Positions 35,795 through 46,862 of a stretch of 64,000 bases of DNA are shown one piece after another. The translations under genes were made by a program, and so were the position numbers. The stretch's first letter is position 1. Each line of letters starts with the position of its first letter. The notes beneath the pieces are model-generated. The model was given only the letters and a program-made list of their open reading frames with translations. It did not search any database and had not been told where the DNA came from. Source of the DNA: a virus; IMG/VR virus record IMGVR_UViG_3300008009_000010, one strand, 5' to 3'.

Positions 35795-35833
35795 TATAAA
35801 TATAATAAACTTTTATAAATATTTTTATAAATA
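35795..35833 (+). promoter_or_regulatory. Three tandem T4-type late promoters
   Basis: TATAAATA at 35795, 35814 and 35826, upstream of 35853. Confidence 0.75.
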
Positions 35834-42603: not shown

Positions 42604-42810
42604 ATGACTGATGCAGAACTCAATATTAAGGCAATTAGAACTATATTTAGTTGTATTAATCCATTTCAATTAAAAACAGCAATGGTTTTTAGTACAATGG
42701 TTGCTAAAAAAATATCAAAAAATCGAAATGAATATTTAGATTTTCTGGAATATTATAATCAGGTTAGGAAAAAAGTTGAAAAAAAATTATCAACAAAATC
42801 AAAGGAGTAA
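42604..42810 (+). CDS. Hypothetical protein
   Basis: 68 aa, AAGGA RBS. Confidence 0.6.
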   Translation: MTDAELNIKAIRTIFSCINPFQLKTAMVFSTMVAKKISKNRNEYLDFLEYYNQVRKKVEKKLSTKSKE

Positions 42811-42814
42811 TAAC

Positions 42815-42958
42815 ATGAAAGAATGTTGTGGTAATTGCAAGAAACACACAGGAGAAAGCTCAAGTCCTTTTAAATTAGGATTATGTAGTTCAACATTAAA
42901 TTCAGATGATACCACCCATAATGATGATTGGTGTGAAGATTTTGAGAGGAAAGAATAA
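42815..42958 (+). CDS. Small Cys-rich protein
   Basis: Likely start MKECCGNCKKH...WCEDFE, AAGGAG RBS. Confidence 0.5.
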   Translation: MKECCGNCKKHTGESSSPFKLGLCSSTLNSDDTTHNDDWCEDFERKE

Positions 42959-43527
42959 TGTCATATTTTGATGAAGCTTATGAAAAAACAATGGAACATG
43001 AAGGATATTATTCTAATGATCCAGATGATCCTGGTGGTGAAACATATAAAGGAATTTCAAGAATTTTTAATCCTTCATGGGATGGTTGGAAATTAATTGA
43101 TCTTTATAAAACAATTGATGGTTTTCCTTCTAATTTAAAATTTATGGATAATTTACAAAAAACTGTTAAGATTTTTTATAAATTAAAATATTTTGATGTT
43201 TTTTGTGGGGATGAATTAGATAAAAATTTAGCAATGAAAATGTTTGATTGTGCTGTTAATTTAGGAACATATAGAGCAATTTTATTTCTTCAAAAATCAT
43301 TAAATGTTCTTAATAGAAATGAAAAATTGTATAAAGATTTATTTGAAGATGGATCTTATGGTAAAAAAACTCATACAACATTAAAAACATATTTAATTAC
43401 AGATTCATCCGAATTGTTAGCTAAATTAATAATGATCCAACAAGGGAATTATTATTTTGAAACTATGCGTAAATCACCTTCACAAGAAAAATATGCTAGA
43501 GGTTGGTTTAATCGAATTTACTTATAA
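42958..43527 (+). CDS. Endolysin, glycoside hydrolase family 108 with a peptidoglycan-binding domain
   Basis: HEGYYSNDPDDPGGETYKGIS, MFDCAVNLG, LQKSLN, DG.YG.KT, ARGWFNR. Confidence 0.92.
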   Translation: MSYFDEAYEKTMEHEGYYSNDPDDPGGETYKGISRIFNPSWDGWKLIDLYKTIDGFPSNLKFMDNLQKTVKIFYKLKYFDVFCGDELDKNLAMKMFDCAVNLGTYRAILFLQKSLNVLNRNEKLYKDLFEDGSYGKKTHTTLKTYLITDSSELLAKLIMIQQGNYYFETMRKSPSQEKYARGWFNRIYL

Positions 43528-43559
43528 AAAATATTTTTTTTAAAAAAAGGAATTAAAAA

Positions 43560-43904
43560 ATGAGTCCTATAGAAACTATTAAAAAATTACCGATCTATAT
43601 AAAAGCTTTTGTAGCTGTAATAACATTTTTGATAACTATTGGTGGCGTTATTTTTGCTGCTGAAGATAGATATGTTACTACTGATGAAGTTGCTCAATCT
43701 TTATCTTTATTGAACCAAAAATTATCTTATGATATAAAAGACGTTAAATTATCTTTGATCCATAAAGAATTAGAATATACTAATAAAACATATTATAAAA
43801 TAAAAGATAGATTAATTCTTCATCCTGATGATCCTGAATTATTATTAGAATTTAATGAAATAAAAGAAAAAAGAAAACAACTTAAAGAGGAGCTTAATAA
43901 ATGA
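43560..43904 (+). CDS. Membrane protein with an N-terminal TM helix and coiled coil (possible lysis accessory)
   Basis: AFVAVITFLITIGGVIFA then a coiled coil; directly after the endolysin. Confidence 0.6.
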   Translation: MSPIETIKKLPIYIKAFVAVITFLITIGGVIFAAEDRYVTTDEVAQSLSLLNQKLSYDIKDVKLSLIHKELEYTNKTYYKIKDRLILHPDDPELLLEFNEIKEKRKQLKEELNK

Positions 43905-44107
43905 AATATTATGAAAATAAAGAAAATTTGATTCCTTTTTTTAAAAACCATTTTTGGGCTTTATCACTTGTTGGTTTTATTATGATTATTTTTAGCCCAA
44001 TTTTATTTCCTTTAACATATATTTTATATAACTATAAAAATATTATGAAAGATTTTGTTGAATATTTTAATGAATCATATAGAGCTTTGTTCTTGTTATA
44101 TAAATAA
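43901..44107 (+). CDS. Small membrane protein
   Basis: One hydrophobic segment; ATGA overlap. Confidence 0.55.
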   Translation: MKYYENKENLIPFFKNHFWALSLVGFIMIIFSPILFPLTYILYNYKNIMKDFVEYFNESYRALFLLYK

Positions 44108-44293
44108 ATCTTTTTATAATTTTACCTTAATTATTTTTATTCTTTTATATTAAAATGTTATCTCATAATTCATTATTTTCTATAGATATTATATACATAC
44201 ATTAATTAATACTTACATAATACTCCTTTGAACTATTAAATTCTATTTTTTTCAATAACTTATAATTTAATTATTACCATTTTAATCAACTTT

Positions 44294-44301
44294 TATAAAT
44301 A
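44294..44301 (+). promoter_or_regulatory. T4-type late promoter upstream of the multiheme cytochrome
   Basis: Exact TATAAATA, about 70 nt before the ATG. Confidence 0.6.
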
Positions 44302-44368
44302 GTAATAGAAATAGAGATATATACATAAGGTATGTATCTCTATCTTTTTAGATTAAAGGAGAAAAAAG

Positions 44369-45991
44369 ATGAAAAAAAATGTTTTACTGTTATTTGTATT
44401 ATTAATCATAGTGAGTATTGGCTATGCAGACGATAATGAAAAAAAGAATAGAACTAATGACTTTTTTCAATCATCTTATCAACATGAAGATGACGATGAT
44501 GAAGAGGATGAAAATAAATATTATAGTAAAGAGGATGATGAAGATGAAGAGGATAAACCACAACCAGATATATTAGATTCAGATAATGATGGGGTTTTAG
44601 ATGATAATGATCAATGCCCTAACACTCCTATCAATGATGTAGTAGATGCTAATGGATGTACTATTACAGAGGAAATTCCTTATACTGATGGCCACTATGA
44701 TAACCCTTCTTGTGTAACTTGTCATGATATAGAAGCTAATCAAGTTCATGATTCCATTCATTATCAATGGAATGGCCCTGCAACATATAATATTACTGGT
44801 AATGTTGAACAGGGTAAAGCTAATGGTGCGGTTAATACTTATTGTGGTAATATAATTGGTAACTGGGAAGGTTGTTCTGCTTGTCATATTGGAAGTGGTA
44901 AACAAATTGTTAAAATTCCTACAGAAGAATCATTAAAAGATATTAATTGTTTAAAATGTCATGAAGCACCTGGTAAATCTTCAACAAGAGAAACTTGTTT
45001 AATATGTCACGCTAAAGCTGGTGGTGGTGATGCAATAAAACGTGGAGATTTAGCTCTTGCTACTGGTAATACCACTGATAAAAAATATGATGTTCACATG
45101 GCAACTACTGGTGCTAATTTAACTTGTCAAGAATGTCATATAACAGAAAATCATAAAATAGCTGGGCGTGGTTCTGATATTCGGCCAACTGATCTTGATG
45201 TTCAAGTATCATGTAATCAGTGTCATGATTCACAACCACATGATAATTCAACATACAATAAACATATAGCTAAAGTTGCTTGTCAAACTTGTCATATACC
45301 AATTTATGCTAAAAATGCTAGTGATAGTAATGCAACAGAAGCAACAGAAATTTTTAGAACCTGGAAATCTTCAGAAGCAATATTACCTCCTTTTCACCCA
45401 ACAAATGAACTAGCTAATAATTTAGTTCCTGTTTATAGATTTTGGAATAAAGATAGTTATAATTATAATATTGGTGAAATGACTATTTTTGATGAATCTA
45501 CTGGAACATATAATACTTCTGTCCCTCAAGGTGATTCATCTGAATCAAATTCTAAACTTTACCCATTTAAATATAAAACTGTTGAACAACCAATGACTAT
45601 TGGAAGTAATATTATTATTCCTTTAAATACTAAAATTTTCTTTGCTACTGCTGACACTGAAGCTGCAATAAAATCAAGTTTAGAATTAATGGGTTTATCA
45701 GTTGATACCCCTTATGAATGGATTATTGCAGATACTTACCAAGCATTAAATCACCAAGTTAGCCCATCTTCTGATGCGTTGACTTGTAAACAATGTCATG
45801 TAGGTGGAACTAATAATGTTAATTTACAATCTTTAGGTTATGCCCCAACTTTACCAATTTCAAGTTGTTCTATTTCTTGCCATAGTGCAAATAAAGCTAA
45901 AGAATGGGAACTCGATAATTTTAGTGATTTTAAAGATCACCATGAAAAACATAAACGTTACTCATGTAATAAATGTCATACAAATAAATAA
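44369..45991 (+). CDS. Exported multiheme c-type cytochrome, octaheme tetrathionate reductase (Otr)-like with extra C-terminal hemes
   Basis: Sec signal peptide; 9 CxxCH plus 1 CxxxCH; Otr-type motifs HYQW..GK..N.YC, GGGDAIKRGDL, DVHM, H..KVACQTCHIP, NHQV. Confidence 0.9.
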   Translation: MKKNVLLLFVLLIIVSIGYADDNEKKNRTNDFFQSSYQHEDDDDEEDENKYYSKEDDEDEEDKPQPDILDSDNDGVLDDNDQCPNTPINDVVDANGCTITEEIPYTDGHYDNPSCVTCHDIEANQVHDSIHYQWNGPATYNITGNVEQGKANGAVNTYCGNIIGNWEGCSACHIGSGKQIVKIPTEESLKDINCLKCHEAPGKSSTRETCLICHAKAGGGDAIKRGDLALATGNTTDKKYDVHMATTGANLTCQECHITENHKIAGRGSDIRPTDLDVQVSCNQCHDSQPHDNSTYNKHIAKVACQTCHIPIYAKNASDSNATEATEIFRTWKSSEAILPPFHPTNELANNLVPVYRFWNKDSYNYNIGEMTIFDESTGTYNTSVPQGDSSESNSKLYPFKYKTVEQPMTIGSNIIIPLNTKIFFATADTEAAIKSSLELMGLSVDTPYEWIIADTYQALNHQVSPSSDALTCKQCHVGGTNNVNLQSLGYAPTLPISSCSISCHSANKAKEWELDNFSDFKDHHEKHKRYSCNKCHTNK

Positions 45992-46067
45992 TATTGACAA
46001 CTCCTTTAGAATGATATATAATGTTACTATTAATAACAAAAATATTCATTCTAAAGGAGTTTAAAAA

Positions 46068-46424
46068 ATGGCATACGTTAGTCAAGATGAAAAACGTAAA
46101 CTTTCCCCTATCATCAAAGAAGTCCTAAAAAAACATGGTTTAAAAGGTTCTATTTCTATTAATAATTATACAACTCTTGTTGTAACAATTAAATCCGGCA
46201 CAATTGATTTTAAAGCAGATGCTATCCATAAAGAATACTGGTATAATGTTAATGAATATTTTATTGAAAAACACTATACAGGTAAAGCTCAAAAAGCTCT
46301 GCTTGAACTCAGGGATGCAATGAATATAGGAAATTATAATAATACTCATGCAAATTTAGATGTTGGTTGGTATATTGAAATTAATCTAGGTACCTTGAAT
46401 AAATCTTATATTCTTGAAAAATAA
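46068..46424 (+). CDS. Conserved phage hypothetical protein, tandem copy 1
   Basis: Near-identical N-terminal 90 aa to 46497..46862; has its own TTGACA-N17-TATAAT promoter (45994-46022). Confidence 0.75.
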   Translation: MAYVSQDEKRKLSPIIKEVLKKHGLKGSISINNYTTLVVTIKSGTIDFKADAIHKEYWYNVNEYFIEKHYTGKAQKALLELRDAMNIGNYNNTHANLDVGWYIEINLGTLNKSYILEK

Positions 46425-46496
46425 CTATTGACTTTTGCTTCTTTAAAGTTTACTATGTTTATATAGTTTTCAACAAACTTTAAAGGAGTTTAAAAA

Positions 46497-46862
46497 ATGG
46501 CATACGTTAGTCAAGATGAAAAACGTGAACTTTCTCCTGCTATCAAAGAAGTTCTAAAAAAACATGGGTTAAAAGGTTCTATTTCTATTTATAATCACAT
46601 GACTCTTGTCGTAACAATTAAATCAGGTACAATTGATTTTAAAGCAGATGCTATCAATAAAGAATACTGGTATAATGTTAATGAATATCATATTGAAAAA
46701 CATTATACAGGTAAAGCTCAAACTGCTTTGCTTGAACTGAAAGATGCAATGAACGTTGGAAATTATGATCATTCTGATACAATGACTGATTATTTCTGTG
46801 TTGGTCGGTATATTGAAATTAATATTGGTAAATGGAATAAACCTTATATTCTTACAAAATAA
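46497..46862 (+). CDS. Conserved phage hypothetical protein, tandem copy 2
   Basis: C-terminal DHSDTMTDYF; has its own TTGACT-N17-TACTAT promoter (46428-46456). Confidence 0.75.
   Translation: MAYVSQDEKRELSPAIKEVLKKHGLKGSISIYNHMTLVVTIKSGTIDFKADAINKEYWYNVNEYHIEKHYTGKAQTALLELKDAMNVGNYDHSDTMTDYFCVGRYIEINIGKWNKPYILTK

Follow-up and report, generated by a model that had tools for sequence, protein, structure and literature searches.

We analysed a stretch of 64,000 nucleotides of viral DNA (IMG/VR virus record IMGVR_UViG_3300008009_000010; hereafter the window), in which an open reading frame (ORF) of 540 amino acids encodes a c-type cytochrome with ten heme-binding motifs (Table 1). The frame is open under translation table 11. 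An earlier note, made from the DNA sequence alone, had listed for this ORF a signal peptide, an acidic linker, a calcium loop, nine CxxCH motifs and one CxxxCH motif, and each of these was read in the sequence. With a motif script the CxxCH motifs were located at residues 115, 169, 194, 210, 253, 282, 305, 473 and 533, the last of these being the CNKCH of heme 10, and the CxxxCH motif (CSISCH) at residue 500. In total, the protein contains 23 cysteines and 23 histidines. The N terminus, MKKNVLLLFVLLIIVSIGYA followed by DD, corresponds to a Sec-type signal peptide and lacks a lipobox cysteine. The acidic linker stands in the place of the MopE-like, MG2 and CBM2 N-terminal modules of bacterial homologs, as judged from the alignment and the precomputed Pfam domains of these homologs. 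It is followed by the calcium-loop motif DSDNDGVLDDNDQCPNTPINDVVDANGC at residues 70-97, of which residues 70-84 fit the consensus DxDxDGxxDxxDxCP. At E ≤ 1 the phage protein gave no match to PF02412 (TSP_3, the thrombospondin type-3 repeat). Residues 70-102 gave partial NCBIfam matches (E 1.4e-5) to OmpA-type anchor proteins bearing the same repeat, and PF02412 is precomputed for two homologs, P0005 and P0006, which align with the phage protein in this motif. Recoding of TGA (code 4) was considered for an odd region at 22-32 kb of the window, and the cytochrome ORF is not affected by it.

Based on profile searches against Pfam and NCBIfam, the earlier claim holds that the protein is a cytochrome of the octaheme tetrathionate reductase (OTR) family with some ten hemes. 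The protein matched PF11783 (Cytochrome_cB, the OTR domain) with 86.1 bits against a cut-off of 22.1, and TIGR04315 (tetrathionate reductase family octaheme c-type cytochrome) with an E-value of 1.7e-69. The latter match reached 235 bits, under the curated cut-off of 375, indicating that the protein lies in the superfamily and outside the curated Shewanella-type subfamily. Among solved structures, the OTR of Shewanella oneidensis (1sp3) was the sole relative by sequence (E 2.2e-50). The eight CxxCH motifs of 1sp3 align with the first eight of the phage protein (residues 115 to 473), and in the HMMER alignment K150, C159, D221 and K224 stand opposite K56, C64, D150 and K153 of the 1sp3 chain. 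K56 is the residue that we take to be the remote lysine ligating the catalytic heme 2, and this number agrees with the alignment. Mowat and co-workers are said to have described, in 2004, a novel heme ligation in this enzyme. The GK lysine singled out in the earlier note aligns exactly with K56, and the motifs that had been recognised as typical of OTR (H..W, GK, N..C, GGGD..K.GDL, DVHM and VACQTCHIP) are all present in the alignment, which stops at residue 492 of the phage protein and leaves hemes 9 and 10 beyond it.

The predicted fold led to the same relative. An AlphaFold model made with 28 sequences had a predicted local distance difference test score (pLDDT) of 50.9 and was not used; the run was repeated with 140 homologs and gave a pLDDT of 82.3 and a predicted template modelling score of 0.76. 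Foldseek returned 1sp3 as the sole match in the PDB at E ≤ 0.001 (E 3.9e-28, TM-score 0.71 normalised to the target, 432 of 436 columns). The two proteins thus share eight CxxCH hemes in the same order, the residues corresponding to Lys56, Cys64, Asp150 and Lys153, and the GGGD..K.GDL, DVHM and VACQTCHIP blocks, and both are exported, soluble products of stand-alone genes, by prediction for the phage copy. However, they are only 28% identical in the structure-based alignment, and the phage protein scores under the TIGR04315 curated cut-off. It also has two more hemes at the C terminus, one of them in a CxxxCH motif, a spacer between hemes 3 and 4 that is about 27 residues shorter, and an N-terminal acidic linker with a loop resembling the thrombospondin type-3 repeat (TSP3-like), and it is encoded by a phage.

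Table 1. Features of the cytochrome gene and its flanks, in positions of the window
Feature	Position	Strand	Basis
TATAAATA, matching the -10 box of T4-type late promoters, 68 nt upstream of the start codon	44294..44301	+	Exact match; candidate only
14-bp hairpin followed by CTTTTTAG	44311..44350	+	No other terminator-like site in 42800-46600
Ribosome-binding site AAAGGAG, ending 7 nt before ATG	44355..44361	+	Read from the sequence
Coding sequence of the ten-heme OTR-family cytochrome c, stop codon included	44369..45991	+	PF11783, TIGR04315, 1sp3, fold match
Sec-type signal peptide, residues 1-20, ending GYA before DD	44369..44428	+	Sequence; modelled helix at 2-18; aligned with signal peptides of bacterial homologs
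Acidic low-complexity linker, residues 39-63	44483..44557	+	28-sequence alignment; pLDDT <50
Thrombospondin-type-3-like calcium-loop motif, with C83 and C97	44573..44674	+	Aligned with the motif in P0002-P0006; partial NCBIfam matches
OTR-homologous catalytic core, hemes 1-8, residues 104-492, with K150, C159, D221 and K224	44678..45844	+	HMMER alignment to 1sp3
C-terminal extension, hemes 9 (CSISCH) and 10 (CNKCH), with conserved His525 and His528	45845..45988	+	28 of 28 aligned members; absent from 1sp3
Perfect sigma-70 consensus TTGACA-17-TATAAT (12/12), promoter candidate for the next gene	45994..46022	+	Directly after the stop codon
Long hairpin, with the ribosome-binding site of gene 46068 in its 3' arm and the -10 box in its loop	45999..46061	+	RNA fold

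A gene of a T4-like phage

The window has a GC content of 25% and encodes a T4-type DNA polymerase gp43 (phrog_262, E 6e-217), clamp loader gp44/62, sliding clamp gp45, a Dda-like helicase, RnlA, an NAD-dependent ligase, a CCA-adding enzyme and PhoH, and in addition an endolysin of family GH108 and a wedge protein of the baseplate. The cytochrome gene is thus flanked on both sides by T4-like genes for replication, the baseplate and lysis, in agreement with its earlier description as a phage gene. The phage represents an isolated T4-like lineage, its polymerase being at most 36% identical to that of any cultured phage and its RnlA having no relative above 53% identity in a large protein collection.

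The exact cytochrome protein was found in 75 blocks of the assembly collections, with contigs of 50-200 kb in 57 of these, and the same neighbours were seen in 20 further places. It is present in NCBI, JGI, ENA and Logan data, and a JGI contig of a second sample shows 99.975% identity along 15.7 kb. Samples containing the phage include ENA ERZ17986946 and JGI 3300008255. The four sequences in the 90% cluster point to a single phage population as the carrier, and the gene is fixed in this one abundant T4-like population. A chimeric assembly, or a bacterial gene beside a prophage, could account for the GC content of the gene (31.4%, above the phage mean of 25.3%) and for the fact that all homologs found are bacterial. 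However, the GC excess is confined to codon positions 1 and 2 and the GC content of third positions (GC3) is only 10.9%, the same junctions recur in many independent assemblies from all four sources, and phage genes extend for tens of kilobases on both sides, with no bacterial housekeeping gene in the window. Based on GC3 and the repeated independent assemblies a chimera or prophage flank was ruled out, and we regard any such artefact as extremely improbable; the phage location that the earlier note had put forward therefore stands.

No homolog of the cytochrome was found in INPHARED with tblastn (50,697 phage genomes), nor in IMG/VR with a single protein, the family alignment or a degenerate DNA pattern for GGGDA.K.GDL. 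As this pattern recovered the window and 45 of the 87 fetched loci, the absence from IMG/VR is meaningful, though not exhaustive. Similarly, the predicted structures of BFVD contained no viral fold relative, and searches of IMG/VR with RnlA or the endolysin gave no close relatives of the phage. The gene is thus as rare in phages as had been supposed.

Bacterial relatives and origin of the gene

At least 1,246 homologs were recovered from 5.8 billion proteins searched. The ten heme sites are conserved throughout, both in an alignment of 28 members and in one of 140 sequences, and in the two alignments nine histidines outside the motifs (131, 243, 262, 291, 299, 343, 462, 525 and 528) are invariant. 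Likewise, K150, C159 and K224 are conserved in the 28-member alignment and invariant among 140 homologs, in which D221 is at least 90% conserved. The two additional C-terminal hemes are a family-wide trait (28 of 28 aligned members), and the short spacer between hemes 3 and 4, a deletion of about 27 residues, is common to a bacterial subclade that includes the nearest relatives of the phage protein. Both traits had been noticed before and are indeed present, but they were inherited from the bacterial subfamily and are not innovations of the phage. The subfamily is spread over Desulfobacterota, Gammaproteobacteria (Thiodiazotropha, Lysobacterales), Nitrospirota, Acidobacteriota and others (loci L005-L084), and it is a ten-heme OTR-like subfamily that appears never to have been characterised so far.

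The phage protein shares with these bacterial proteins, such as the 'MopE-related protein' of a Desulfuromonadales metagenome-assembled genome (MAG; P0004/L005) and members from Desulfobulbales, Thiodiazotropha, Lysobacterales and Nitrospirota, the ten hemes, the nine distal histidines and the catalytic residues. It is 62-69% identical to the nearest members, is nested in the family tree, and has the short spacer and the TSP3-like loop in common with the nearest clade. In contrast to them it is the shortest full member, without MopE-like, MG2 or CBM2 modules, and its amino-acid and codon composition is shifted towards AT. The bacterial members are longer because they carry N-terminal modules, which are MopE-like (PF11617), MG2, CBM2 or TSP3; of these, the phage copy kept one TSP3-like loop, which aligns with the loop in P0002-P0006. 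Conservation in bacteria reaches at least 90% in 166 columns, and the phage protein retains 158 of these, where the closest bacterial kin retain 93.6-94.8% of conserved columns in a leave-one-out control, and none of its eight deviations falls at a heme site. Among 38 same-strand neighbours of the bacterial homologs no Pfam family occurred more than twice. The bacterial enzyme has no dedicated operon partner, and transfer of the gene on its own would thus be workable.

To place the phage copy among the bacterial OTR-like proteins, a maximum-likelihood tree of 59 family members was made. In this tree the phage protein belongs to a four-member clade with a Shimodaira-Hasegawa-like approximate likelihood ratio test (SH-aLRT) support of 100, together with the Desulfuromonadales MAG L005 (62% identity) and contigs L003 (66%) and L002 (69%). 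L003 shares azlCD synteny with L005, and the citrate synthase encoded on L002 is 90% identical to that of Desulfopila, indicating that L002 derives from a Desulfocapsaceae bacterium. Based on this placement among Desulfobacterota homologs, sediment bacteria of this phylum that respire sulfur compounds or metals were the donors of the gene. The terminal branch of the phage protein (0.59) is about 2.5 times that of its sister (0.23). The GC3 of 10.9% lies within the range of six phage core genes (9.5-16.4%) and below that of the nearest bacterial homologs (19.5-38.4%), which agrees with the AT-rich, phage-like codons described in the earlier note. Phage-like third positions in an intact gene indicate a long residence in an AT-rich replicon and argue for purifying selection.

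A Desulfobacterota-like host had also been suggested. The tree supports this phylum as gene donor, but no link to it as phage host was found: when a 20-kb segment of the phage was compared with 406 genomes of the phylum (5 named ones and then 401, from the phylum of the Desulfocapsaceae homolog L044/G001), only the cytochrome gene matched substantially. These matches were in G002 (69% over 1,056 nt), G003, G005, G001 and G075, with a short and weak one inside the ORF in G290. All other matches of the segment were weak and AT-rich, and exact, spacer-like matches were absent from the 406 genomes.

In contig L002, the closest homolog of the phage gene lies in an island of 32-42% GC with five small unannotated ORFs (L002:1-4250). 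The island adjoins core genes of 42-49% GC of the Desulfopila-like bacterium, and the homolog itself has a GC3 of 19.5%. The low GC content of the island and this GC3 suggest that the homolog possibly arrived from an AT-rich mobile element. The island was ruled out as a prophage of the same phage, as the flanks are unrelated and the cytochrome gene alone is held in common. Given this island, such phages may also spread the enzyme between Desulfobacterota.

Flanking signals and neighbouring genes

The gene is located between a lysis cassette and a block of small genes. Upstream are the GH108 endolysin and then two small membrane proteins, and downstream are two paralogs of phrog_10415, a phosphoesterase and RnlA, so the phage neighbours named previously were recovered. 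The two phrog_10415 paralogs (118 and 121 amino acids, function not assigned) stand in tandem directly downstream of the cytochrome gene (46068-46862), and the two copies have about 86% nucleotide identity (blastn, L087 against the window).

According to the earlier note the gene stands under a late promoter, and this claim was not supported. TATAAATA occurs in 23 copies on both strands of the window, compared to 23.07 ± 4.09 in shuffles, and a strong terminator-like hairpin lies between the upstream motif and the ribosome-binding site. In intergenic positions 8 sense and 2 antisense copies were counted, with about 4.9 and 4.0 expected, which is a weak trend. The only clear cluster in the window consists of three copies within 39 nt at 35795-35833, just upstream of gene 35853. 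Late timing in infection and a reprogramming of an anaerobic host, both part of that earlier proposal, are speculative. The ribosome-binding site that had been described is present and was graded strong.

The hairpin upstream of the gene has a predicted folding energy of -18.7 kcal/mol (z -5.0, none of 200 shuffles as stable) and is followed by CTTTTT. It could be the terminator of the lysis transcript or a 5' stem-loop of the cytochrome mRNA. The hairpin downstream of the stop codon is more stable still (-24.4 kcal/mol, z -6.7, again none of 200 shuffles as stable). As modelled, it would mask the ribosome-binding site of gene 46068 only in read-through transcripts and not in those from the candidate sigma-70 promoter. 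This masking at 45994-46067 recalls the T4-style gating of translation through the choice of promoter. Flanked by a hairpin on either side, the cytochrome gene looks, in its sequence, like an insulated unit.

Elsewhere in the window, the segment 27900-31100 has 33-40% GC in a phage of 25% GC. Its coding strand has no ORF of at least 100 amino acids under table 11 or table 4, and it gave no Rfam match at gathering thresholds; it could be foreign DNA, an unrecognised RNA or an intron cluster.

Predicted function and significance

The explanation that we favour, with moderate confidence for the whole, is that the gene encodes a functional, exported OTR-type reductase from Desulfobacterota that sustains anaerobic electron flow for the phage. 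The T4-like lineage would have acquired the gene long enough ago for its synonymous sites to reach phage composition, and would have shed the adhesion-type N-terminal modules and retained every important conserved residue. Its product would be a functional ten-heme cytochrome c that is exported by Sec and is soluble in the periplasm. In its catalytic core of eight hemes, Lys150 would be the ligand of heme 2, and Cys159, Asp221 and Lys224 would line an open distal pocket, whereas the two C-terminal bis-His hemes would probably act as an electron-entry wire. An infected diderm host with a cytochrome c maturation system would mature the protein in the periplasm and supply electrons from its generic periplasmic or quinol-linked carriers. 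Reduction of tetrathionate, nitrite, hydroxylamine or a similar soluble oxyanion of sulfur or nitrogen may then maintain anaerobic electron flow and energy supply for phage production. More tentatively, a lytic T4-like phage that infects bacteria of anoxic sediment or groundwater may in this way make its own catalytic ten-heme terminal reductase by means of the Sec and maturation systems of the host, and so control the final step in anaerobic respiration with sulfur or nitrogen compounds.

Several points weigh against such a role. The TIGR04315 score of 235 bits compared to a cut-off of 375 marks a distinct subfamily, for which any substrate is putative, and the physiological substrate is debated even for the Shewanella OTR. 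No ccm, ccs or heme genes and no other ORF with multiple CxxCH motifs were seen in the 64-kb window, and the maturation of ten hemes per molecule is costly during a lytic cycle. The adhesion-type N-terminal modules of the bacterial homologs hint at a role at the surface rather than as a soluble periplasmic reductase. Also, in JGI sample 3300008255 one T is missing at 45838 (GGTTAT, 45836-45841), which shifts the frame after residue 490. This variant loses hemes 9 and 10, and its frame continues to 564 amino acids (L087:11432-11642, corresponding to 45800-46010 of the window); the deletion may reflect a real subpopulation or a sequencing error. Finally, the cytochrome was not found near RnlA in the phages with the nearest RnlA relatives (at most 53% identity), indicating that it is a lineage-specific accessory gene.

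The last two observations would also fit a neutral or decaying passenger (moron) that was picked up once and is not used by the phage, as would the single carrier population with four sequences in its 90% cluster and no RnlA relative above 53%, and the position of the gene at a boundary of gene modules, insulated by hairpins. However, the synonymous sites are fully ameliorated, yet no heme site or catalytic residue has been lost and 158 of the 166 conserved columns are kept, which argues for long purifying selection within an AT-rich replicon. Together with the strong ribosome-binding site and the identical protein in 75 blocks, this makes an unused passenger very unlikely.

The N-terminal modules of the homologs bear on another reading, in which the protein is an electron wire or surface conduit, held in the envelope by its calcium-binding TSP3-like loop, that delivers electrons to acceptors which are insoluble or outside the cell, for instance Fe(III), Mn(IV) or partner cells, and keeps an electroactive host respiring. 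The homologs occur mainly in Desulfuromonadales, Geobacteraceae, Desulfobulbales and Thiodiazotropha-type bacteria, and many have MopE-like, MG2, CBM2 or TSP3 modules that are typical of surface proteins. The two additional hemes lengthen the chain, and OcwA, a relative in the superfamily, shows that a surface terminal reductase is possible (bioRxiv 10.1101/2022.02.24.481543). In comparison, the conservation of K150, C159, K224 and D221 across the 140 homologs suggests that small molecules are converted at heme 2, the phage copy lacks the N-terminal modules except for one loop of 30 residues, and no outer-membrane porin or secretion partner adjoins the gene in the phage or in the bacterial loci. 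We therefore consider a surface conduit unlikely.

A reductase of small molecules could alternatively serve detoxification, with periplasmic nitrite, hydroxylamine, sulfite and the like being removed so that the cell survives until lysis, and no energy being conserved. The Shewanella OTR reduces nitrite and hydroxylamine in vitro, a result of Atkinson et al. (2007) as that work is cited in two later papers (PMC8840924, PMC11237559). Detoxification is in line with the conserved active-site residues and with a stand-alone gene that has no quinol dehydrogenase partner. However, no stress-response or nitrogen-cycle genes are found near the cytochrome gene in the phage. The evidence does not separate detoxification from respiration, and we judge detoxification quite improbable. 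A respiratory reductase that sustains electron flow is the reading that we retain.

Known viral auxiliary genes cover steps of photosynthesis, carbon metabolism, sulfur oxidation and ammonia oxidation. To our knowledge, hardly any multiheme-cytochrome terminal reductase for anaerobic respiration has been described from phages. In the literature that we searched, no phage was reported to encode an OTR-family enzyme or any other catalytic multiheme enzyme, and the first viral multiheme cytochromes, which are small carriers, were reported only in 2023-2026. Viruses of Methanoperedens encode cytochromes with 5 and 6 hemes (bioRxiv 10.1101/2023.08.02.551345), amoC-phages a NapC/NirT-family cytochrome (bioRxiv 10.64898/2026.06.18.733297), and nrfH was flagged as an auxiliary metabolic gene of sediment viruses (PMC13243649). 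The view of the earlier note that multiheme cytochromes are unusual in phages thus holds for the OTR type, which was not found in the other phages of the viral collections searched, but has to be qualified for these smaller, virus-borne proteins. Like the cytochrome described here they are host-derived c-type respiratory proteins, and they are proposed to augment electron transfer in the host. They differ in being small electron-transfer proteins or quinol dehydrogenases with 4-6 hemes, from archaeal viruses or phages of nitrifiers, whereas the present protein has ten hemes, a predicted catalytic heme with a lysine ligand, belongs to a different family and is encoded by a T4-like phage.

The classical energy-related auxiliary genes of T4-like phages (psbA/psbD, petE and PTOX of cyanophages) offer another comparison. 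There, too, a lytic T4-like phage carries a host-derived component of electron transport that is fully adapted to phage codon usage. However, those genes serve photosynthesis and this one would serve anaerobic respiration; its product would require export and the covalent attachment of ten hemes by host machinery, and it is so far found in one phage lineage. The cytochrome is therefore a new and striking member of an emerging class of virus-borne multiheme cytochromes and not a new kind of system.

That the gene has stayed intact at about 11% GC3 suggests that a costly, cofactor-laden protein pays for a lytic phage. If the proposed function is true, this bacteriophage would be the first one known to encode a catalytic multiheme enzyme, and viral influence would extend to sulfur, nitrogen or metal respiration in sediments. 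Moreover, as a compact member of 540 amino acids without accessory domains, the phage protein could offer a convenient entry to the biochemistry of this large OTR-type family.

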